A DNA stretch of 64,000 nucleotides from a virus. The notes beneath the pieces are model-generated. The model was not told the DNA's origin and ran no database searches. It saw only the letters and a program-made list of their open reading frames with translations. Position 1 is the first letter of the stretch. Each line of letters opens with the position of its first letter. Shown piece after piece: positions 1 to 9,423 of the stretch. The DNA lies in IMG/VR virus record IMGVR_UViG_3300012685_000001, positions 49,468 to 113,467 of that record; one strand, 5' to 3'. The position numbers and the translations under genes are program-made.

Positions 1-69
1 CACGCTGTCTGGTAGGCAATTTACGGTACAAAGCCGTAGGGATTGTTCCTAGCTACACTATCTTAAAGT

Positions 70-519
70 TTACTTACCAGTTCCAGCCTTGGCAGTAATG
101 GTAGGAACACCAGCTTCACCAGAAGGAACATAGATAACAGTGTTATTCTTACCAGACTTAGCAATACTTTCCATTGCCTGAATCATCTCGAACTGAACAT
201 AAAGAGGAGTCAGAGTCTTGGCAATCTCATCCTGAGCCTTACGAACACCTACAGACTGCTCATAGCGAATCTGAGCCTGCTGCTTTGTAACTTGAATACG
301 CTGCTTCTGATTACGAATCTCAATATCCGTTACCTTAACAGTATTATTCGCGTGAATCAATGCGATATTAGCGTTATTCTTAGCATCCGCAGTATTTTGA
401 CTACGACTGAATGCCTTGAAGCCTGCTGTAGCACCCATGATAATACCTAGCAGAAGAAACAATCCAAGCGCGCCTGCCAGAACAATCCTGACACCATTCT
501 TAAAATCTTCCTTGTCCAC
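70..519 (-). CDS. membrane protein, band-7/SPFH-like C-terminal coiled coil
   Basis: N-terminal TM helix, coiled coil, C-terminal 'LTPLYVQFEMIQAM..NTVIYVPSG..GVP' resembling SPFH tails. Confidence 0.55.
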   Translation of the reverse strand: MDKEDFKNGVRIVLAGALGLFLLLGIIMGATAGFKAFSRSQNTADAKNNANIALIHANNTVKVTDIEIRNQKQRIQVTKQQAQIRYEQSVGVRKAQDEIAKTLTPLYVQFEMIQAMESIAKSGKNNTVIYVPSGEAGVPTITAKAGTGK

Positions 520-553
520 TGTGCTCCCAATTAGTATTCCATTTAAACTAACG

Positions 554-636
554 TGATTCGGGTGGGATTCGAACCCACGTAGGATTTCTCCGGCAGATTA
601 AGAGTCTGCTCCAATTGGCCGCTCTGGCACCGAATC
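554..636 (-). tRNA. tRNA-Lys(CUU) with long variable arm (Tyr-like body)
   Basis: Acceptor GAUUCGG/CCGAAUC, anticodon arm GCAGA-CUCUUAA-UCUGC, V-arm GGA-GAAA-UCC, T-arm GUGGG-UUCGAAU-CCCAC. Confidence 0.85.
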
Positions 637-683
637 ATGTCCCGGTTCTTTCTTATAGGGGAACCGCGCTACTAAGACCCAAG

Positions 684-755
684 TGGAGCTACGGGGACTC
701 GAACCCCGAATTGAAGTATGCAAAACTTCCGTGTTACCGTTCACACTATAGCCCC
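684..755 (-). tRNA. tRNA-Ala(UGC)
   Basis: GGGGCUA acceptor with G3:U70; anticodon arm GAAGU-UUUGCAU-ACUUC. Confidence 0.92.
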
Positions 756-810
756 ATTGTGAGGACTTAACCGGTCCTCAGCGGGTATAACTACTTTAGC
801 AGACTAGATC

Positions 811-2391
811 TTACTTTGCAACCCAAGGCCACGTCTGTGATATTCCAGCTTCTATCAAAGGAATCATCTGGAAACCCTTGTCAGTCAGTCCACCAAAGGT
901 GTGACGCTTCTTGGAACCAGATTCACTCTGGCCAACAGCATACCCTCCGAGGTTCCAGGTGTAGACAGGAACATTAGCAGGTACAGAAGCAACAGGATCT
1001 CCACCGTAACCATTGTACTGCTCATCAGTGATGATCACAATACGGTCATGGTTCTTGAAGTTGCCGTTGACTGCTCCACGGGTATCAGTTCCACCCATGC
1101 TCTTGAACTTACTCAGCATAGGAAGAACAGACTGACCCTTACGGAAAGAAACTGTTTCGAAAGAAGGTCCACGCCATGCGTCACCAAACTGTACCAGATC
1201 TGCATTTTCAGCACGAAGTGCTAGTGCTGAACCAAAGATAGCAGCCGTGTCAGCTCTGTCAAGTCCCTGAGTTCCTCCGTTAGAAGTAAACATGGAACCA
1301 GAACGGTCAACCAGAACCAGTGTACGTCCCTTCAGAGAAGGCACATTGCTCAGAGAAGCCTCAAGGGCAGTCTCAAGCGCCGCAGCGATCTGAAGAGTAT
1401 CCTTGTTGGCCTGGTAAGCAGCAAGGAATCGGAAAGGGAACTGCTTACTCTTGGCAACCTGCGCAGGATCAGCAAGTTTTGCAAGAACATTCTGCATCAC
1501 TGGGACACTAATTCGGGCATCCTGGAAGTTCCGCAAGTTTCGAAGAAGTGCCATATATCCCATGGAAGGAATAACAGCTTCCCAGGCAACAGCATCCATA
1601 GGACCCTGAAGCCATCCGGAAAGAGCTTCCCAAGTCATTCCAGCATTCTTCATACGAGTAGCGTCCAGAAGGCCAGTAACTATTGCGCCCTTACGGTTTT
1701 CTACTGGAATACGCATTATATACTTTCGCGTATTAATCATCTCTAGTACGCCTGGAACAATCTCTACATTTCCATAACGACTAGCAAGAGCGTACTTGAA
1801 CAACTGCTCCTGAATCTCGTTATCAGGCTTAGGGTGAGTCAACTGAAGAACATCCGCGAAACGGTATCCCACAGAAGTATCGTACTTAAGAAGACTGTAC
1901 TCGTTATACAACTTCTTGGCACCATCCGCAACACCCTTCTTAAGGAAGGATGGGAAGTTCTTCCCGTACTTGGACTCGTAATAAGCCAGCACCTCACCAG
2001 GCTCATCAGCACGAGCCATAGAAGCGGCTACAAGGCCCCTAGGAGTCCCATTCAGCTGTCCTGAGTCCCAAAGGGCCTTGGCACCTTCTACACCCGCTAC
2101 AATCGCCGCTGAACGCATGAAGGCAGAGTTACGAAGCCAATAGACGAAACCGGCAAACCAGAATGAATTAGTTACCGCTACTTCGGCACACAACTTGGAG
2201 AAACGGTCATCACGGCTCTTGGCGTTCTCATAGAACGTATCCTGACCGACAAAGTTGGAAACTGCTAGCAAGAACAACTCAGATTGCTTAGTGCGCACAA
2301 AACCTGCCTTGAAGTCAGCATTCAGTGCTGCCTGAGTAGTCTTGACAGGAGAAGTAGTTCCTGTCTTCTTTACCTGATTGAACTTGCCCAT
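811..2391 (-). CDS. rsr: Ro60-like RNA-binding protein (TROVE + vWA)
   Basis: TROVE motifs (TFYE, RADEPGE, TWE, MALLRNLRN, QFPFRF) and vWA MIDAS 'VLVDRSGSM', 'GGTD', 'IITDEQ'. Confidence 0.95.
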   Translation of the reverse strand: MGKFNQVKKTGTTSPVKTTQAALNADFKAGFVRTKQSELFLLAVSNFVGQDTFYENAKSRDDRFSKLCAEVAVTNSFWFAGFVYWLRNSAFMRSAAIVAGVEGAKALWDSGQLNGTPRGLVAASMARADEPGEVLAYYESKYGKNFPSFLKKGVADGAKKLYNEYSLLKYDTSVGYRFADVLQLTHPKPDNEIQEQLFKYALASRYGNVEIVPGVLEMINTRKYIMRIPVENRKGAIVTGLLDATRMKNAGMTWEALSGWLQGPMDAVAWEAVIPSMGYMALLRNLRNFQDARISVPVMQNVLAKLADPAQVAKSKQFPFRFLAAYQANKDTLQIAAALETALEASLSNVPSLKGRTLVLVDRSGSMFTSNGGTQGLDRADTAAIFGSALALRAENADLVQFGDAWRGPSFETVSFRKGQSVLPMLSKFKSMGGTDTRGAVNGNFKNHDRIVIITDEQYNGYGGDPVASVPANVPVYTWNLGGYAVGQSESGSKKRHTFGGLTDKGFQMIPLIEAGISQTWPWVAK

Positions 2392-2393
2392 TC

Positions 2394-2597
2394 CTATTCT
2401 CCTATTTTCTCGAAGCGCTGCATACGCTTGCCATCACGTTCTACATACTCAACAAACTCATCCAAGGGACGCACTGAAATAATACCTTCTCCGTATTGCG
2501 CTGCATAAACTACCACATCTCTCCAGGAGCCACTTTCCTTTGCAAGGAACAGGACTCTATAAAGATTTCCCTTAAAATGTCTGTACAGCCCATGCAT
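2394..2597 (-). CDS. DUF1653-domain protein
   Basis: 'GLYRHFKGNLYRV..A..S....VVY..YG....VRP..EF......RF' signature. Confidence 0.85.
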   Translation of the reverse strand: MHGLYRHFKGNLYRVLFLAKESGSWRDVVVYAAQYGEGIISVRPLDEFVEYVERDGKRMQRFEKIGE

Positions 2598-2682
2598 TGT
2601 ACCTCCTATTTGTAGTACGTTATAAAGACAAAAATAATCCCCTAAAGTGCACTTTCGTGGACCTAGGGGAGGATTAAAAATA

Positions 2683-2791
2683 AGTTCCTAGAAAAAACGG
2701 TGTGAGGTATATAGGCGCCGTGCCTTAAGGGGACTCGAACCCCATGGGTTTCATATCAATTGAAGTAACCCCGTACCTTCGCATCGGAACT
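2683..2791 (-). ncRNA. Y RNA-like gene 1 (T-arm-only module)
   Basis: Terminal stem AGUUCC/GGAACU, shared GAUGCGAAG..GUUACUUC..UUUCUAG motif, internal GGGG-UUCGAGU-CCCC T-arm; upstream of rsr. Confidence 0.75.
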
Positions 2792-2799
2792 AAAAAATA

Positions 2800-2874
2800 T
2801 ACCCTAGAAAAAACGCCTACAGTGCTTTTTGATTACCAATTAATTTGAAGTAACTGTTGGCTACGCATCGGGTA
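2800..2874 (-). ncRNA. Y RNA-like gene 2 (minimal, no tRNA-like module)
   Basis: Terminal stem UACCC/GGGUA, GAUGCGUAG..GUUACUUC..UUUCUAG motif, upper stem GCC-A-ACAGU/ACUGU-A-GGC. Confidence 0.7.
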
Positions 2875-2892
2875 AAGCTTATTAAATTTTAA

Positions 2893-3033
2893 GACAACTA
2901 GAAAGAATCGATAAAAGTGCTTTATATACCGCTGCTCTGCCTCTGAGCTATCAACCATAGAATTGGCTGAGAAGGATTCGAACCTTCGTCACGCGGTTCC
3001 CTGTGAAGTAACTCTTATCTTCGCATCGCTGTC
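2893..3033 (-). ncRNA. yrlA: YrlA-type Y RNA (permuted tRNA-like domain)
   Basis: Same stem motif, then T-arm GAAGG-UUCGAAU-CCUUC, closed acceptor-like hairpin UCAGCCA/UGGUUGA and D-arm GCUC-AGAGGCA-GAGC, in T-acceptor-D order. Confidence 0.88.
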
Positions 3034-3101
3034 AAACTTAATAGATCTAGGCTCGGTTTCGACGTATCGCAAGATACCCTTGACAGCGTTCAAGATCTAA
3101 G

Positions 3102-3173
3102 CTCCCCGAGCTGGATTCGAACCAACAACCGGTCGATTAACAGTCGACTGCTCTGCCGTTGAGCTATCGGGGA
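3102..3173 (-). tRNA. tRNA-Asn(GUU)
   Basis: Cloverleaf; GUCGA-CUGUUAA-UCGAC. Confidence 0.95.
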
Positions 3174-3209
3174 ATAAACTCTATCCACAAGGAATAGAGT
3201 GGGTTAAAG

Positions 3210-3280
3210 CATGAGCTAGAGGATTTGAACCCCTGATGGCGGTTTTGGAGACCGACGTGTTACCACTACACTAAGCTCAT
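3210..3280 (-). tRNA. tRNA-Trp(CCA)
   Basis: Cloverleaf; anticodon loop CUCCAAA. Confidence 0.9.
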
Positions 3281-3296
3281 ATAGCCCGAAGGCTTT

Positions 3297-3503
3297 TTAC
3301 TTAATGGAATTAACTACACCCGTTAATCCATCATTTACAGCACTAGGCAACTTAGGGAAATTCGATACTAGCAGAATTCCCAACATAGCACCAGCTACAA
3401 TCTGTGCCAGCTTCCAACCCTGCTTAAGAATCATAACCCAAATGAAAAGGCCCATAAGTCCAACAGTTCCCAGAAAAGCTAGCAATGCATGTACGATATC
3501 CAT
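3297..3503 (-). CDS. small membrane protein (2 TM)
   Basis: Two hydrophobic segments; own promoter upstream. Confidence 0.65.
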   Translation of the reverse strand: MDIVHALLAFLGTVGLMGLFIWVMILKQGWKLAQIVAGAMLGILLVSNFPKLPSAVNDGLTGVVNSIK

Positions 3504-3545
3504 TTTTAACCCCTAGAAAGTTCTTGTCGTTCTCTCTTGTAGAGA

Positions 3546-3575
3546 AGCTTACTAAGAGTCTGTGGTACTTGTCAA
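3546..3575 (-). promoter_or_regulatory. sigma70/HrdB-type promoter
   Basis: TTGACA-N18-TAAGCT. Confidence 0.6.
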
Positions 3576-3578
3576 GCG

Positions 3579-3652
3579 TACCCACGGGGAGACTCGAACT
3601 CCCAAGCTCCTGAGCCTAAATCAGACGGCTGTGCCAATTCGCCTACGCGGGC
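3579..3652 (-). tRNA. tRNA-Leu(UAG), short variable loop
   Basis: Cloverleaf; anticodon loop UUUAGGC. Confidence 0.88.
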
Positions 3653-3730
3653 ATAACGACAGTTTTTCTGAAGCCCAACTTAATGGATGCTGTGCTCTTA
3701 CTCTTCAGAGGGCAAACTGTCAACCTCACG

Positions 3731-3803
3731 TAGTCCTAGTCGGATTCGAACCGACGCTGTCTCGATTTTAAGTCGAGTGTCTCTTCCGCTGGACTATAGG
3801 ACC
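3731..3803 (-). tRNA. tRNA-Leu(UAA), short variable loop (same anticodon as bldA)
   Basis: CUCGA-CUUAAAA-UCGAG. Confidence 0.9.
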
Positions 3804-3809
3804 AAGATG

Positions 3810-3883
3810 TACTCCTGGTCGGACTTGAACCGACACTAACATAGTTTTTGAAACTATGGCCTCTGCCTTTGGGCTACAGGAGC
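3810..3883 (-). tRNA. tRNA-Leu(CAA), short variable loop
   Basis: AUAGU-UUCAAAA-ACUAU. Confidence 0.9.
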
Positions 3884-4027
3884 ATAAGTGACTGTCTGGA
3901 TTCTCAATCCAGCGCCACTACACAGGTCTTTAGCGTTTAGTCGGATCATATCTTGGCTTTTATTGTACCCCGGAAGTACCTTCCAAGTCAAGACGACCGT
4001 GCCAGGAGTTACTGTGCAGAACCTAAG

Positions 4028-4099
4028 AGCCCCTTCCCGGATTCGAACCGAGCACTTGGCTTTACAAGAGCCGCGCTTTTCCTACTAAGCTAAAGGGGC
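4028..4099 (-). tRNA. tRNA-Thr(UGU)
   Basis: Anticodon loop CUUGUAA. Confidence 0.9.
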
Positions 4100-4106
4100 A
4101 AGAGCC

Positions 4107-4135
4107 ATTGTACTAGCCCAATGGCAGGCTGTCAA
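4107..4135 (-). promoter_or_regulatory. strong sigma70-type promoter in front of tRNA-Thr
   Basis: TTGACA-N17-TACAAT, 7 nt before the tRNA 5' end. Confidence 0.75.
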
Positions 4136-4136
4136 A

Positions 4137-4451
4137 TTATGCTGTTCCAGTAGCCTTTACCACAAAGTCAACAGTATCGTTGATTGTGGCCTGGTTTGGA
4201 AGAGCGAAAATAGAAGCGTTGTTCACATAAATTGTCCATAGGACAGAAGTATTGGTAACAGGATTACCCGCACTATCAGTTCCAGGTGGAACATCAGCGG
4301 CTACGATCTTCTTAACTGTAGAAGGAAAAGAAGCACCACCAGTTGTAGGAACTGGGAACACATAAGCATGTCCATCAGCACATACAATAGCACGAACCTG
4401 ATCATTCACAGCAAGAGCATCAGCCTTGACAATCGTATAAGTAAAAGCCAT
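4137..4451 (-). CDS. hypothetical protein
   Basis: 104-aa ORF with AAAGG RBS between tRNAs. Confidence 0.7.
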   Translation of the reverse strand: MAFTYTIVKADALAVNDQVRAIVCADGHAYVFPVPTTGGASFPSTVKKIVAADVPPGTDSAGNPVTNTSVLWTIYVNNASIFALPNQATINDTVDFVVKATGTA

Positions 4452-4527
4452 TTGTTAAACCTTTCTAGAAAGAATCACTAAGTGATCGCTATAGCTCTTT
4501 TAGTATATAGCATTTCTTTCTGAAACG

Positions 4528-4599
4528 TACTCCCAGAGGGAATTGAACCCTCTCCTAGGGCTTGAAAGACCCTGATACTAACCAATATACGATGGGAGC
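4528..4599 (-). tRNA. tRNA-Glu(UUC)
   Basis: AGGGU-CUUUCAA-GCCCU. Confidence 0.92.
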
Positions 4600-4796
4600 A
4601 TAACTATTGGTACTGGTAGGGCTTGCCAGTTTCGAACCTGAGCCTTTATTTCAGAATATCCAATAGTATCCGAGTCTAGTCCCACACATACTTCCTCGGT
4701 TTGCAGCATCTGACAGGCAGCCTATCTCTATTTTGGCTAGCAGTCTGTAGGAACCGATAGTCCCCCAGCGTCTTTGAGACCTGTCAGGTGTGATGC

Positions 4797-4870
4797 TGGT
4801 ATCCCTACAGGGACTTGAACCCTGTCTAGAAGCTTGAGAAGCTTCCGTACTACCTATATACGATAGGGAC
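4797..4870 (-). tRNA. tRNA-Glu(CUC), CCA encoded
   Basis: GAAGC-UUCUCAA-GCUUC; ends ACCA. Confidence 0.92.
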
Positions 4871-5052
4871 ATTAAATGGCTGGTGGTCTCATCCCTTGTG
4901 ACTACTTAGTTCCGCCACAAACTAAGGTTACTCCCACCTGGCGGCACCTGCCCTGTCTCTCGCCGCTTCTCAACACGGACAACCATCGGATGGATGATAA
5001 TTGCCAGCACTCCTCGTCTTCCTTGTGGGAAGAACTGTCCATCACGTGCACG

Positions 5053-5124
5053 CGCCCCATACGGGAATTGAACCCGCCGATTCAAGCGTGACAAGCTTGT
5101 GACCACCCAGCAGTCTCATGGGGC
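5053..5124 (-). tRNA. tRNA-Asp(GUC)
   Basis: CAAGC-UUGUCAC-GCUUG; G73. Confidence 0.88.
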
Positions 5125-5157
5125 AACAAAGTGCCCTTTAAGGTAGGACACAAACCT

Positions 5158-5460
5158 TTACTTCTTTAAATCTGTCTCAGGCCACGATAATATCGCCCTT
5201 TGCTCAACAACCGTACCATGGTTAACTACAGCTCGGGAAATATCTGAATAATCTTCGCCATACCGCAGAATTATCAAGTAGTTGTTGGGATAAAGCTTAG
5301 CAACCTCTTCCAGATCTGTCAACCAGGCATACCATTTGGAAGCTGACAGAGTTATATTTTCCTGCCACTCATCCCACTTGTAGCCAGAAGCACCATTGAG
5401 AACATCAGCTACAAAAGGTATATCTGTTCCATCTACTTCAAAATTTGAGTAATAACCCAT
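5158..5460 (-). CDS. hypothetical protein
   Basis: AGGAG RBS; 100-aa ORF. Confidence 0.75.
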   Translation of the reverse strand: MGYYSNFEVDGTDIPFVADVLNGASGYKWDEWQENITLSASKWYAWLTDLEEVAKLYPNNYLIILRYGEDYSDISRAVVNHGTVVEQRAILSWPETDLKK

Positions 5461-5477
5461 ATTTATCTCCTAACGCG

Positions 5478-5549
5478 CTGGAGTACTAGGATTCGAACCT
5501 AGACTGTCCTGATCCAAAGTCAGGTGGGCTGCCGTTACCCCATACTCCA
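5478..5549 (-). tRNA. tRNA-Gln(UUG)
   Basis: CCUGA-CUUUGGA-UCAGG; U1:A72. Confidence 0.93.
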
Positions 5550-5552
5550 AAG

Positions 5553-5689
5553 TGGTCCCTCGTGAGTGCCTTACCAAGATAATAGTCTTGACGCACTGCT
5601 TTTCAGTATCTTCCCGGCACTTTCCCACACCTTTACCATGGTTATTACATGTGTTCCAGATTCGTTCTTTTCCCAATTCTGTACGAGCG
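5553..5689 (-). ncRNA. candidate ACCA-terminated non-tRNA RNA
   Basis: CGCUCGU/ACGAGGG closing stem + ACCA; internal hairpin AGUGC..GCACU. Confidence 0.4.
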
Positions 5690-5723
5690 TTTAACAACTC
5701 TACCTGCCAAAAGATAGAGTAAA

Positions 5724-5845
5724 TGGTTGGACGTAGCTTGGCTTATCCCCAAGTTTCGACCTTGTCTTCATTTGCAACTTATCTAGAAAACGGCAAACTA
5801 TCATCCGGCTTATCCTTGCTCTTGTGCACTGAGCTTTGGCGTCCA
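5724..5845 (-). ncRNA. candidate ACCA-terminated tRNA-mimic RNA
   Basis: UGGACG/CGUCCA stem + ACCA; D-arm-like GCUC-AGUGCACAA-GAGC; no anticodon arm or T-arm. Confidence 0.5.
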
Positions 5846-5846
5846 G

Positions 5847-5917
5847 CTCCCCGACCTAGATTCGAACTAAGTCTAACGGTGTCAGAGACCGTTGTGCTGC
5901 CGTTACACCATCGGGGA
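5847..5917 (-). tRNA. tRNA-Gln(CUG)
   Basis: ACGGU-CUCUGAC-ACCGU. Confidence 0.92.
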
Positions 5918-6022
5918 ATAAACTAGGTGCGGATTATAAATACCTTTATCGCTCCAGAAGAGCAGTTGGTCCCTAGCAACCAAAAATAGTGCCCTGCTAT
6001 TACTAGCTGTTTATGGGCTAAG

Positions 6023-6095
6023 AGCGGTATGCCAGATTCGAACTGGCTCTTATAGTTTGGAAGACTATCGTGCTGCCGTTGAACACTAATACCGC
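6023..6095 (-). tRNA. tRNA-Gly(UCC)
   Basis: AUAGU-CUUCCAA-ACUAU; U73. Confidence 0.92.
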
Positions 6096-6202
6096 ATTGT
6101 ATGGATTTTTATTGACCGTGCTTCCCCGCAGGGGCTAGACTTCCATGTCGTATGACCTACCATACTTCAGACACACTAGGTCGTCAAACTGATCGAATTG
6201 GG

Positions 6203-6275
6203 AGCGCAGGTGGGAGTCAAACCCTACTACTTTCCAGGTTATGAGCCTGGTGAGACATCGTTTCTCTATCCGCGC
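6203..6275 (-). tRNA. atypical tRNA-Met(CAU)
   Basis: CCAGG-CUCAUAA-CCUGG; degenerate D-loop and T-arm. Confidence 0.7.
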
Positions 6276-6277
6276 AG

Positions 6278-6349
6278 TGGTTATGAAGGGACTCGAACCC
6301 TCGCGTACCGGGATATGAATCCGGCGCTCTGCCTCTGAGCTACATAACC
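6278..6349 (-). tRNA. tRNA-Met/Ile2(CAU)
   Basis: Anticodon loop UUCAUAU; canonical D and T arms. Confidence 0.85.
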
Positions 6350-6403
6350 ATAATCATGGTTTTTTATTGTGTTCCGCTACGGGATAACCATAAACCCGTA
6401 AAG

Positions 6404-6474
6404 TGGCCCCCACCGGACTTGAACCGATATTCAGCGGGCTTCAACCGCTTGTATTTCCTTTATACGAAAGAGCC
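6404..6474 (-). tRNA. tRNA-Phe(GAA)
   Basis: AGCGG-UUGAAGC-CCGCU. Confidence 0.88.
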
Positions 6475-6553
6475 ATAATGAGTTATTACCTGGTATTGAA
6501 CATCATATCTATTATTTATTATGAGGATGTATATACGTGCTGATAACTCAAAG

Positions 6554-6625
6554 TCGGATGCCTCAGAGTCGAACTGAGTTTATCTTGGTCCCAAACCAAG
6601 CGGATTACCGTCTTCCTCGCACCCG
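6554..6625 (-). tRNA. tRNA-Pro(UGG)
   Basis: CGGGUGC acceptor (C1:G72), CUUGG-UUUGGGA-CCAAG. Confidence 0.92.
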
Positions 6626-6808
6626 AGAACTCCTAAAGATTGGATCCATTAACGAAAGAGATCTCTAGGAGCTTTTTAAGGAGGCTATGCCATTATAACA
6701 TGTGGTCCAACAGCTCACAAGTCCCGAAGCTTGATGCCATTCTTGACATGATCTCTGCAAACCTTGATCTCTTTACCGTTATGGTACAAGATTACCGCAA
6801 CTGGAGTC

Positions 6809-7048
6809 TTATTGCAACGGGTCATCCAACAGCGGTTCTGTATTCCCGTCATCTGTTTTCTCCACGACTAGTTCTATCACATCATTACTCATTACCGCAA
6901 CTGTGATATATCCAGGTTCCGATGTTGTATCCAACACTAATCTAGTGGGAAGCATATTGTCAAGCAGATCTTGAGAAATTGTCCAGGAGCCCCCGAAGTT
7001 ATGGACAGCCAGAGCTAAGAACCTAGCAAGGTCTTGTTCAAGAGTCAA
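6809..7048 (-). CDS. hypothetical protein
   Basis: Overlapping operon ORF. Confidence 0.65.
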   Translation of the reverse strand: MTLEQDLARFLALAVHNFGGSWTISQDLLDNMLPTRLVLDTTSEPGYITVAVMSNDVIELVVEKTDDGNTEPLLDDPLQ

Positions 7049-7277
7049 GATGTTCTCTATTCTTCAGATCATTGAGAAGAGAAATCTTTTCATCAGTAAT
7101 TCTTTTAATAGTATCTTTCAGATAAGTTACTGACTCTTCCAGATCAGAAACATATTCTTGAGCACCAGAAGAAGCCAGAGAAACTAGCTTATCCAGTACT
7201 CTTCTGTCTTGTTCTGTTTCTGAATCAAGAATCTCTGTTAGAGAGAAATAAATAGAATCATATAGTTCTTGATTCAT
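7038..7277 (-). CDS. hypothetical coiled-coil protein
   Basis: GGAGG RBS, overlaps neighbours. Confidence 0.7.
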   Translation of the reverse strand: MNQELYDSIYFSLTEILDSETEQDRRVLDKLVSLASSGAQEYVSDLEESVTYLKDTIKRITDEKISLLNDLKNREHLDS

Positions 7278-7470
7278 AAGAATCAGCCTCCTCTATTCTT
7301 TTTTCCATTTCTCTCTGATTATTAAGATTGTCAACCAAAGATTCAAGAACCTTACGAATATAGACTGTAATCCCTAATTCTTGGTAATCAGCTTGTTCCT
7401 TCAATATTTCTAATGTTTCCTTCTTTAATCTTAAGCTTCTGGAAACCATAGCCTTACTATCTTTGGTCAT
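7258..7470 (-). CDS. ribbon-helix-helix DNA-binding protein
   Basis: 'SRSLRLKKETLEILKEQADYQELGITVYIRKVLE' RHH pattern; start taken at MTKDSK. Confidence 0.65.
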   Translation of the reverse strand: MTKDSKAMVSRSLRLKKETLEILKEQADYQELGITVYIRKVLESLVDNLNNQREMEKRIEEADSYESRTI

Positions 7471-7958
7471 ATATTCTTCTTCCCTATATTCTTGGTATCT
7501 CTTCTTTATAGAGAGTAAGTATACAGGTTGTAGTACATATGTCAATCTCTGGTTGGATCTTCATATTCAAGCTTGGGAGTGAAACGACCAAGCTATATGG
7601 TTGACAACCACTGTTTTTAGAGATAGATATAAAGACTCTTAAGTACTTAACTGCTTTTCGATCGGTAGTGCTTCGATCATACACTACGGTTCCAAAGAAT
7701 TCAACCTGTTGTGGTTCATACCTGAAACTGGTAGAGTATTTCCTATGGGGAAACTGGTGGGGGTACTACTAGTACAGAGGTTTTAATATGAAGTTCAAAG
7801 ATATGGACATTGGTAAAGAAGGTCCCTGCATGGTACCTGGCCACAAGAAAAGTCATGTACTGACTCTGGCTTGCTGGTCAGAAATGCGCAGATTCCTTTT
7901 CGACCATAGTTTTCAGGATTTTCTGGAAAAAGTAGAGAACAAGTAGAAAGAGAAAATT

Positions 7959-8366
7959 ATGGGACATGCTGTACAGAGTTCCTACTACTCTAAACCTATA
8001 ACACGGATTCACGCTGATTTCAACGGTATCTGTGCTTTGTGCGGTGAGTATGTAGAACTTGAAGACGCGTCCCGTGACCATATTATCCCCCGTTCAGCAG
8101 GCGGGGGTAATGGTCCGGACAATATCCAATTGACACATAAGCAATGCAACAACCTGAAGGGAGATCAGCTTTATCCATCTGACTGGCAGGAACAACTTAG
8201 TCGCAATATTCCTATTCCACGCGACTACCATTGCCAATATTGTTCCAATCCGATAGTCAAGTGGCATAAGTCACAAGGCTATACAACAAAGATTTTCCAC
8301 AAGGGAAAGATCATATTCCTCCACACCTGGTGCAATGAAGGGAGATTGAAGTATGGACGCCTTTGA
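7959..8366 (+). CDS. HNH endonuclease
   Basis: CALCG..SRDHIIPRSAGG....NIQLTHKQCNNLKG. Confidence 0.9.
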   Translation: MGHAVQSSYYSKPITRIHADFNGICALCGEYVELEDASRDHIIPRSAGGGNGPDNIQLTHKQCNNLKGDQLYPSDWQEQLSRNIPIPRDYHCQYCSNPIVKWHKSQGYTTKIFHKGKIIFLHTWCNEGRLKYGRL

Positions 8367-8550
8367 AGAATTCGACAGGTTCATGTCGGAAGATCCGGAA
8401 GACAGACGAATCATGGAGAATCACGGTTTCACCTATGAAGATGATTTCAGAGATTTAACGCTGCTTTGTAGGAACGGCTGCGGACTGACTTATCTCGAAG
8501 TGGTTCAGGACAAGATTGAGAAATGCCGAGGAAAGGATGACAATGAATAA
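8353..8550 (+). CDS. hypothetical protein
   Basis: ORF with RBS overlapping the HNH stop. Confidence 0.6.
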   Translation: MDAFEEFDRFMSEDPEDRRIMENHGFTYEDDFRDLTLLCRNGCGLTYLEVVQDKIEKCRGKDDNE

Positions 8551-8781
8551 ACCAGCAATACTGCTGGACGAAGATGTTCCACAATGGAAAACTGATAGCA
8601 CTGCATTCCTGATGCAATAAGGAGAGACTGAAGTATGGAAGACTCTAAAAAAGATAAGGTCCGCAAGGGGGACCATTACTGTTCCCGTTGTGATAAATTT
8701 CTTCGTATCTGGCAGACATGCAAGCATAATCCGACAATACTGAAAAGAGACCGGATATGGTAATTTCGAAAAGTTGTCACA

Positions 8782-9423
8782 ATGTCTAGGCCTACTATTC
8801 TCCTAGACGTTGACGGGCCTCTGAATCCATGGAGTGCCCGTCATGGGCTTCCAGAGGGGTATACAGAGCATTTGATGCGTCCTAGGGGCTGGGAGACGGG
8901 TAAGCCTCTGAAAGTCCGTCTACGGGCTTCTGACGGCTTCAAACTTCAGAAGCTGGATTGTGAACTGATATGGGCTACCGCGTGGGAAGAAGAAGCCAAT
9001 AAATGGATCGGTAAAGAAATAGGTCTTCCGGAACTTCCCCATATCGACTGGACAGACAAGAATCACTGGAATATTGAACGACTCCACTGGAAAACAAAGA
9101 GAATCGTCCAGTGGATGAACGAGAACAGACCAGGAATCCCGTTTATCTGGCTCGATGACGAAGTAACAAAGCGAGATCGTCTCTGGATTGCTGATTCTTG
9201 CGCAAAAGGAAGCACTATTTTGCTGATTAATCCAAAAACAGGGCTGGAAGACGAATATTTCGAAAGAATTAAGGCATGGAAGAACTATATGGTTCTAGAA
9301 AATCTTAGAAAAACTATAGAAACTATTCCGGACGGGCGTAAAGAAGAGATTCGTAAGGATATAAGAACTTTTCACGATAAGCATGGGAGACCTGGCGATG
9401 AAGTTAACAGCAAGAACCCCTGA
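8782..9423 (+). CDS. HAD-family phosphatase (Swiss-army-knife RNA-repair type)
   Basis: ILLDVDGPLNP, 'IWATAW', 'FIWLDD', 'INPKTGL'. Confidence 0.85.
   Translation: MSRPTILLDVDGPLNPWSARHGLPEGYTEHLMRPRGWETGKPLKVRLRASDGFKLQKLDCELIWATAWEEEANKWIGKEIGLPELPHIDWTDKNHWNIERLHWKTKRIVQWMNENRPGIPFIWLDDEVTKRDRLWIADSCAKGSTILLINPKTGLEDEYFERIKAWKNYMVLENLRKTIETIPDGRKEEIRKDIRTFHDKHGRPGDEVNSKNP

Follow-up and report, generated by a model that had tools for sequence, protein, structure and literature searches.

In annotations of phage tRNA arrays, the spacers between the tRNAs are usually left empty. The array on the minus strand of the 64,000-nt stretch analyzed here (the window), which comes from a soil phage of 113 kb with Streptomyces phage BRock as a relative, raises the question of whether such spacers carry RNA elements of their own. 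The initial annotation had noted the word CAAUAAAA in three of the spacers and had proposed a single family of pseudoknot-like RNAs. The phage of the window is referred to below as W and the three spacers, all read on the minus strand, as A (3884-4026), B (6101-6149) and C (6354-6401). They were compared with a set of 13 related tRNA arrays containing 212 tRNA leaders; the relatives are labelled L002, L003, L012, L258 and so on.

The quoted motif letters were all found on the minus strand. CAAUAAAA lies at 3958-3965, 6107-6114 and 6362-6369, and 0-2 nt after each copy comes a 5-7-mer that contains CCA and can pair with a UGG segment further upstream, as annotated; A and B also have GAC(A/U)UGGAAG and GGU(A)CAAUAAAA in common. 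The number of copies of the 8-mer in the window (4, with 2.3 expected) did not amount to over-representation, and 3 of its 5 genome-wide copies lie within 2.4 kb of array. Around the word, B and C were alike at 13 of 14 letters, which none of 1000 shuffles matched, while the A-B and A-C similarities were marginal, with 160 and 25 of 1000 shuffles being as good. These likenesses could indicate that the three spacers are copies of one CAAUAAAA pseudoknot family, in which the word would be the functional core and the UGG/CCA helix would be kept by compensation between paralogues; indeed, the CCA/UGG pairing is present at all three sites, and the flanking letters differ in step. However, the UGG/CCA helix of A is broken in four of its five orthologues (L012, L010, L005 and L256) and also, by a variant at 3985, in three other metagenomes. 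Moreover, of the five A orthologues, three are without CAAUAAAA; in C orthologues, the word is variable and becomes CAACAAAA; and no further copies of the A/B/C element were found in the 13 arrays. We therefore regard a single family as unlikely and the word as unsuitable for defining one; the observation stands in its letters and in the knot at C, but not in its grouping of A, B and C.

The H-type pseudoknot of C occupies the whole spacer between tRNA-Phe and tRNA-Met. Stem S1 (6400-6395 with 6383-6378) has 6-7 bp of variable sequence, stem S2 (6392-6386 with 6361-6355) has 7 bp, and loop L3 (6377-6362) is a 16-nt, A-rich spacer that contains CAAUAAAA and ends in CAAYAAAA. The loop contact is a 7-bp Watson-Crick helix, and the hairpin loop of 11 nt (8 nt in L258) has a conserved UGG core. 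C is carried by five phages, namely W, L012, L016, L003 and the divergent L258. The clean H-type knot that had been read at 6356-6400 was borne out, as 11 of 11 counted pairs hold in all five sequences. Four pairs were changed on both sides, a covariation that comes from one divergent sequence, L258, and 1 of 500 shuffles equalled the score of C. In L258, both stems are altered with compensation and the A-rich L3 is kept; between W and L258, 13 of 15 positions are identical in L3 versus 17 of 26 in the stems. G-U pairs are possible on the tRNA strand only, and the RNA was thus assigned to that strand. The 3' end of C lies 5 nt upstream of tRNA-Met in W and 3-5 nt from the acceptor stem across the five copies. 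Taken together, these comparisons identify C, as judged from its sequence, as a genuine, enlarged member of a compact class of tRNA-leader pseudoknots.

Several other readings of C were considered and rejected. Pistol-like and preQ1-I-like folds have parts that are missing in C, with no Rfam match. C and the preQ1-I aptamer are both H-type pseudoknots in which a segment after an A run pairs with the hairpin loop, but the L2 of C lacks the ligand-pairing C, its tail exceeds that of the aptamer by 10 nt, and downstream there is no queuosine gene. The reading of C as containing a tiny ORF was also rejected, as was pairing of the C tail with the 5' end of tRNA-Met, which is possible in W alone and unconserved in relatives.

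The structure of B is that of a candidate pseudoknot with the same layout as C, placed in the leader of tRNA-Gly. S1 (6149-6147 with 6116-6114) has 3 bp, and S2 pairs 6146-6142 with 6105-6101; the minimum free energy (MFE) fold of the leader closes with the S2 helix. L2 holds a 25-nt insert with a GC hairpin, and the 8-nt, A-rich L3 contains CAAUAAAA. B ends 5 nt upstream of tRNA-Gly in W and 61 nt upstream in L012, and its position is that of covarying tRNA-Gly leader knots in L004, L005, L015 and L016. B was seen in W, L012 (98% identical) and one run only, and these near-identical copies are uninformative for covariation. The outer helix that had been proposed for B can form but is rivalled by a perfect local 6-bp hairpin. 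This hairpin is overlapped by a sigma-70-like promoter match (6159-6187; TTGACG, 17 nt, TATGGT; 9/12) in the 5' half of the spacer. B is probably a member of the leader-knot class in which one loop holds an additional hairpin.

A is of a different kind. It is a conserved 143-nt leader with five orthologues, directly upstream of tRNA-Leu(CAA), in which a long-range 8-bp helix links both halves and a covarying 3' hairpin stops 3 nt before the tRNA (alifold and pair tables). The helix flagged in the initial annotation ends 68 nt upstream of the tRNA, outside the 2-8 nt range of the leader-knot class. A also contains a predicted sigma-70-type promoter (3962-3991; TTGACT at 3991-3986, 18 nt, TACAAT at 3967-3962; 10/12), and its CAAUAAAA (3965-3958) begins within the -10 box, CAAU being the end of TACAAT. 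In the four orthologous versions of this promoter, T1, T2 and A4 of box 1 and T1, A2 and T6 of box 2 are kept at a spacing of 18 nt; the TTGAC-like and TAnnnT boxes are kept while the flanks and the AAUAAAA part vary. A is thus not a member of the knot class but appears to be a larger conserved tRNA-Leu(CAA) leader bearing a predicted sigma-70-type promoter.

We found that the class to which C belongs extends well beyond the flagged spacers. A leader was counted when it held a compact knot with S1 and S2 together of at least 10 bp that ended 2-8 nt before the tRNA. Such knots were present in 30 of the 212 leaders in the 13 arrays, compared with 5.8 (maximum 11) in 30 shuffles, where the orthologues counted are not independent of one another. 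In W, the MFE fold had a helix ending 2-8 nt before the tRNA in 14 of 23 leaders versus 7.7 +/- 2.3 in shuffles. The orthologue sets of the Thr, Gly, Ala, Asp and Met leaders keep both stems with differing letters, as parsed from their versions. Compensation keeps both stems in C and, with S2 judged by count and S1 by parse, in the Thr leader; in the other leaders, both were judged by parse. The S2 3' strand lies 3-5 nt from the tRNA 5' end in C and 3-4 nt in the Thr leader. The modules are dispensable: of about 13 relatives, 5 carry C and 2 carry B. Genome-wide, the compact-knot descriptor showed no enrichment (48 found, about 43 in shuffles).

The pseudoknot in the tRNA-Thr leader (4104-4130, 27 nt), which had not been flagged, covaries strongly. 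S1 pairs 4130-4127 with 4118-4115, and S2 pairs 4125-4119 with 4110-4104. The knot lies between ORF 4137-4451 and tRNA-Thr, starting 7 nt past the stop codon of the former and ending 4 nt short of the latter. Both stems are kept in seven aligned sequences, which represent six distinct knot versions; S2 is 100% paired, both partners differ in 6 of its 7 pairs, and none of 500 shuffles matched it. Further candidates were present in the leaders of tRNA-Asp (5131-5157), tRNA-Ala (760-784) and tRNA-Lys(CUU) (643-672), the last being the weakest of the set. The Asp candidate extends from 1 nt past the ORF 5158-5460 stop codon to 6 nt short of tRNA-Asp, and other knot versions occur at this leader in L256, L258 and L002/L260. 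The Ala candidate (S1 of 3 bp, S2 of 7 bp, L3 of UUAA) ends 4 nt before tRNA-Ala and is kept with changed stems in L253, L004 and L260. ORF 5158-5460 has 20 homologues.

Rfam searches gave no catalogued counterpart of the flagged spacers. In a scan of 1-9000 with E up to 1, they gave chance-level matches only, as did C and its L258 orthologue with E up to 10. The nested-fold energies of A, B and C were ordinary on both strands (z = -1.3, +0.2 and -0.3, respectively). Scanning IMG/VR with the exact cores of C and A yielded matches confined to the same phage clade, including a new relative, L010. A scan with the L3 core followed by CCA yielded 65 matches, of which those in known relatives had the knot and the remainder were at chance level. 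A tRNA-Pro D-arm pattern retrieved about 200 unrelated phage loci, none of which contained A, B or C, and a descriptor search keyed on a UAAAC core did no better than chance in the arrays. In contigs from four DNA runs, few positions varied, and one relative was without B. The proposal of an undescribed RNA motif therefore holds in that an uncatalogued pseudoknot class without an Rfam match is supported by the sequence comparisons, with C as a clean member; its limitation to three sites does not hold, the class being far wider. We consider it likely that BRock-like phages place compact H-type pseudoknots 2-8 nt upstream of many tRNA 5' ends.

The promoters raise the alternative that the elements are DNA signals only, with incidental RNA helices. 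A and the Thr leader have high-scoring sigma-70-type promoters whose critical positions are conserved, and a 9/12 match lies upstream at B. In particular, an 11/12 match overlies the Thr knot (4135-4107, minus strand) with a start site at about tRNA +1, so that the knot would be missing from transcripts begun there. In contrast, C was rejected as a promoter, having no acceptable -35/-10 pair and no usable -10 box. Furthermore, the interleaved helices covary in C and the Thr leader, which is not required of a promoter spacer; the Thr knot of BRock is retained without a -35 box; and the G-U pairs are strand-specific. A purely DNA-level role is accordingly improbable in our estimation, and the elements are discussed below as RNA pseudoknots.

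A boundary function of the leader pseudoknots would proceed as follows. The array would be transcribed as long tRNA-mRNA precursors, with the knot folding in read-through RNA. RNase P cleavage at the tRNA 5' end would then give the upstream fragment a new 3' end 2-8 nt beyond the knot, which could act there as a compact boundary, either as a cap against exonucleases, as an insulator against mispairing of the spacer with the adjacent tRNA, or as both. We infer this role because the distance to the RNase P site is constant at 2-8 nt, because the Thr and Asp knots directly follow ORF stop codons and because the tRNA-Gly knots of relatives have coremin-like cores (PMC10520033, PMC10321173). At C, the gene that precedes the knot is a tRNA and not an ORF, and a cap at this place would stand in the way of 3' trimming of tRNA-Phe if RNase Z had not cut beforehand. 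The boundary or roadblock mechanism taken by itself is a tentative proposal; for the leader-knot class and this mechanism considered together, the balance is slightly favorable. A more specific version, which we find rather doubtful, is that the knots are protein-free roadblocks that, with RNase P, define and protect RNA ends in tRNA-mRNA operons, some of them overprinted on promoters. Such roadblocks would range from coremin-like 25-nt knots to the 48-nt C and might act against, for example, RNase J or PNPase of actinobacterial hosts, and the overprinted promoters would start transcription at tRNA +1.

To place these knots among known systems, we compared them with coremin, a motif that occurs, as xrRNA-C or a Watson-Crick variant, in beny-, cucumo- and other RNA viruses of eukaryotes (PMC6546385, PMC10520033, PMC10321173). 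The two were similar in overall layout, each being a tiny H-type knot that joins the terminal part of an A-rich spacer to the loop of a short hairpin by base pairing, with a structured element, here a tRNA, coming next. The tRNA-Gly leader knots of relatives share the coremin hairpin stem and spacer core. The leaders of L005, L004, L015 and L016 have the core UUAAACUAC or a near-core, and that of L005 contains 13 consecutive coremin letters, ending in GUUAAACUAC. C differed in several respects. The 4-bp GUC...GAC stem of coremin is present in the L004 and L005 tRNA-Gly leaders and B has GAC...GUC (3 bp), whereas the S1 of C (6-7 bp) is unrelated. The 11-nt loop of C does not match the coremin loop consensus, YGAD or YGNNAD (PMC10520033), and its stems have 7+7 bp versus 4+3 bp. 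Coremin has an 8-10-nt spacer with a UUAAACUAC core; B has AAUAAAAA, and the spacer of C has 16 nt. The counterpart of the downstream element hp2 would be the tRNA acceptor stem that follows all five C copies after 3-5 nt, by analogy only. Coremin is hosted by eukaryotic RNA viruses, whereas C belongs to a DNA phage of bacteria, and nuclease resistance of C, such as the stalling of a 5'-3' exoribonuclease that characterizes coremin, is hypothetical. To our knowledge, bacteria have no Xrn1. Among the mechanisms suggested in the initial annotation, the exonuclease roadblock is the sole one that may have gained from these comparisons, indirectly, through the resemblance to coremin xrRNAs.

Two further systems offer looser parallels. 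At the 3' end of the eukaryotic nuclear RNAs MALAT1 and MEN-beta, a U-A-U triple helix precedes a tRNA-like RNA at which RNase P cleaves. There, as proposed here, a compact A-rich fold lies just upstream of the RNase P site and the cut yields a protected 3' end, but the present folds are H-type pseudoknots before genuine tRNAs, and their protection is inferred. The tRNA cluster of phage T4 contains the stable RNAs C and D (species 1 and 2), of 120-140 nt. These are likewise structured non-tRNA RNAs in a phage tRNA operon, released by tRNA processing; however, they are not small pseudoknots.

It had also been suggested that the elements are tRNA-processing ribozymes. A theta ribozyme is built as a nested double pseudoknot, with the helices P1, P1.1, P2, P3 and P4 and a catalytic C in J4/2, and such ribozymes are found at tRNA 3' ends, with the cleavage site within 5 nt, mostly in gut phages (PMC10879173). 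If C (and B) were self-cleaving ribozymes of this HDV-like kind that process tRNA ends, the start of C 1-3 nt past tRNA-Phe in W, L016 and L258 would be the theta position, and both are pseudoknotted RNAs a few nucleotides from phage tRNA genes without encoded CCA (PMC10879173). However, C consists of two helices and is tied to the 5' end of the downstream tRNA; the 2 nt between S2a and S1b leave no room for P3/L3, P1.1 or P4; no Rfam ribozyme family, HDV-type included, matched even with E up to 10; and about 85 nt separate tRNA-Phe from C in L012 and L003. A ribozyme is therefore highly improbable. Equally remote is the suggested type III antitoxin mimic, a pseudo-ToxI decoy against host abortive-infection toxins: the knots are small, with A-rich single strands, and are accessory and patchy among relatives, but they are single copies separated by tRNAs and nothing like a tandem array, they are tied to tRNA 5' ends, they match no Rfam antitoxin family, and the variety of their sequences from one tRNA to the next points to a generic structural role.

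The spacers of these arrays hold small, selection-kept RNA folds, placed at a constant distance from the site of RNase P cleavage. If the knots are barriers to nucleases or to folding, they would explain how long tRNA-mRNA precursors become stable pieces without terminators, and such very small insulators could serve as portable parts. The range of exonuclease-resistant pseudoknots would then reach from eukaryotic RNA viruses into DNA phages, and the knots, if this is true, would be a bacterial-virus counterpart of eukaryotic-virus xrRNAs. BRock is cultivable and carries the Thr-leader knot, which makes the idea directly testable.

The phage genome comprises 113,467 bp with terminal repeats and 44.6% G+C (the window being bases 49468-113467), and among named relatives the closest is Streptomyces phage BRock, a myovirus whose 112.5-kb genome encodes 29 tRNAs (PMC7453282). 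In the window, 18 tRNA genes lie on the minus strand at 553-6625, and the array extends upstream beyond the window to a genome total of 28 tRNAs. The tRNA order is common to this phage, BRock and a dozen soil IMG/VR contigs, whereas the array spacers vary greatly among relatives in length and content. The second "tRNA-Met" (6199-6276, minus strand; 78 nt) adjoins the first with a spacer of 0, and its Rfam tRNA score of 29.8 barely passes the threshold of 29 bits. After the array, we observed a Ro60 orthologue (TROVE and VWA; ORF 811-2391, minus strand) and a DUF1653 gene (2394-2597, minus strand); a non-coding stretch of roughly 700 nt (2392-3100, minus strand) is kept in all relatives, and a sub-threshold match to YrlA (Y RNA-like) lies at 2930-2995 (minus strand). 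Additionally, three ORF-free minus-strand spacers at 5550-5845 (296 nt), 4871-5051 (181 nt) and 4600-4796 (197 nt) are kept at 77-93% identity across several relatives and have no Rfam family.

The initial annotation had proposed a single pseudoknot family with a UGG/CCA helix in three array spacers, here termed elements A (3884-4026), B (6101-6149) and C (6354-6401). All of the quoted strings were found in the sequence, and CAAUAAAA was present in three array spacers, each time followed by a CCA-containing segment able to pair with an upstream UGG segment. This motif occurs four times in the window (2.3 expected) and five times in the whole genome, three of these in array spacers. Upon local alignment, B and C were the sole significantly similar pair (13 of 14 letters; 0/1000 shuffles as good), whereas 25/1000 shuffles were as good for A and C and 160/1000 for A and B. 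The nested folding energies of A, B and C were ordinary. The RNA had been regarded as uncatalogued, and indeed none of the three flagged spacers had a family in Rfam 15.

Element C, in the tRNA-Phe to tRNA-Met spacer, had been described as a clean H-type knot, and this description was borne out. Orthologues were found in four other phages, filling or ending the same spacer. Three were close copies, with a G-U replacement in S1 (S1 and S2 are the interleaved stems; L1, L2 and L3 are the loops), CAAC for CAAU and an A-run shorter by one base. The fourth, on the 112-kb contig L258, was divergent: double-sided changes were present at two S1 pairs and two counted S2 pairs, one more S2 pair covaried by hand alignment, no pair was lost, and the 16-nt L3 was identical at 13/15. 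On the MAFFT alignment, pairing was 100% with four doubly changed pairs, and 1/500 shuffles was as good; all slid controls fell below 50% pairing, and G-U pairs occurred on the tRNA strand only. S1 is 6-7 bp and S2 7 bp long, loops L1, L2 and L3 have 1-2, 0-3 and 15-16 nt, respectively, and the end of C is always 3-5 nt from tRNA-Met. Because the stems are kept with double changes, together with the shuffle and slid controls and the strand-specific G-U pairs, C is a real H-type pseudoknot; as the covariation comes from one divergent lineage, the evidence is solid, though short of overwhelming.

C belongs, as an enlarged member, to a wider class of knots in tRNA leaders, the stretches before the tRNAs. 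In this phage, the MFE structures of 14 of 23 leaders contained a helix that ended 2-8 nt ahead of the tRNA, compared with 7.7 ± 2.3 in shuffles, of which 1/200 was equally high. A knot descriptor (S1 of at least 4 bp, S2 of at least 5 bp, sum of at least 10 bp, end 2-8 nt before the tRNA) matched 30 of 212 leaders from 13 arrays; in 30 shuffles, the count averaged 5.8 and peaked at 11. Genome-wide, the compact descriptor reached chance level only, and the knots are therefore a property of tRNA leaders in this phage. Strong covariation was found in orthologous leader sets. In particular, both stems of the tRNA-Thr leader knot (4104-4130) were kept in six distinct versions, and 6/7 pairs of its S2 were doubly changed with 100% pairing (0/500 shuffles as good). 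Similar knots precede tRNA-Ala (760-784), tRNA-Asp (5131-5157), perhaps tRNA-Lys (643-672) and, in relatives, tRNA-Gly. Knots of the class typically span 25-30 nt and have a 4-9-nt L3 (for example, UUAA or UAAAC), and no Rfam family matches these leader knots.

Element B, in the tRNA-Gly leader, was found only in this phage, contig L012 (98% identical, then 56 extra bases) and one sequencing run; in other relatives, its position is taken by an ORF or only a very short spacer. B can be drawn in the layout of C, with a 3-bp S1, a UGG/CCA S2, an 8-nt A-rich L3 and a hairpin inserted in L2, and the MFE fold of the leader contains its closing helix. The outer helix first suggested for B and a perfect local hairpin compete with each other. 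Small covarying knots before tRNA-Gly in contigs L004, L005, L015 and L016 occupy the position of B, which is a plausible member of the leader-knot class. In place of B, L003, L004, L007 and L258 have in the Met-Gly spacer (e.g., L004:2426-2900) a conserved ORF of ~130 aa, equipped with a promoter-like site and a ribosome-binding site of its own; one metagenomic relative has only ~7 nt there.

The tRNA-Gly knot at L005:2865-2896 (the same as L259:5206-5238) shares 13 consecutive letters, among them the hairpin 3' strand and spacer, with coremin, a plant-virus pseudoknot motif (PMC10520033); the literature searched contained no paper tying coremin-like knots to phages. A separate conserved module of coremin layout, in which two covarying hairpins flank a GAUUAAA(A/C)AG spacer, was found at L003:2565-2648, L015:4967-5049 and L256:5251-5374. 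Some relatives have this module between tRNA-Phe and tRNA-Met, and another has it between tRNA-Met and tRNA-Gly; spacer RNA modules therefore change position.

Five phages retain the entire 143-nt spacer of element A immediately before tRNA-Leu(CAA). The UGG/CCA helix of A did not withstand comparison, being broken in four of the five and by the 3985 variant of three further metagenomes, and three of the five had other, unrelated letters in place of the AAUAAAA part. In the motif sub-region, the sequences keep two boxes, one TTGAC-like and one TAnnnT, at a spacing of exactly 18 nt; the pair exists in four different versions, and its flanks vary. Since these boxes are kept at 18 nt while the proposed helix and AAUAAAA vary, the "CAAU" of A is the end of a predicted -10 box. 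The site ranks in the top four sigma-70-type matches on the array strand, and its -10 hexamer, TACAAT, is also found in the promoter before tRNA-Thr. Some A-bearing phages have ORFs, including an HNH-type gene, inserted before A; in two relatives (L005:5415-5850; L255:7624-8330), the stretch between tRNA-Thr and A contains inserted ORFs, one of them with a C-terminal motif of HNH type, consistent with a need for an A-internal promoter. At the RNA level, A retains an 8-bp long-range helix with one compensated change, one wobble change and zero breaks, and a covarying 3' hairpin that stops 3 nt before the tRNA.

The Thr-leader knot overlaps the boxes, and the interval between them, of a near-consensus sigma-70 promoter (4107-4135, minus strand, and orthologues), with TTGAC(A/G), 17 nt and TAnnnT in six lineages and a predicted start at about tRNA-Thr +1; in BRock, the knot is kept and the -35 box is absent. 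The same DNA would be both promoter and RNA fold. Given the predicted start, the knot would be possible only in read-through RNA from upstream, and RNase P would have little or nothing to trim from the primary transcript.

Leader knots lie at a constant distance from the RNase P site, ORF stop codons lie 1-7 nt before the start of the Thr and Asp knots, the array strand has no intrinsic terminator-like site except the Asp-leader S2 hairpin itself, and some knot copies contain a coremin-like core. Together, these anatomical features tentatively suggest that the knots may be boundary elements. Taken together, the alternatives of simple folding insulation, a protein-binding role or another function are more probable. 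Of the initial proposals, those of a ribozyme and of a type III antitoxin failed structural tests. Once RNase P has cut, a knot acting as a boundary element would cap the upstream RNA at its 3' end or, alternatively, halt 5'-3' exonucleases (RNase J, for example), and it may additionally insulate tRNA folding.
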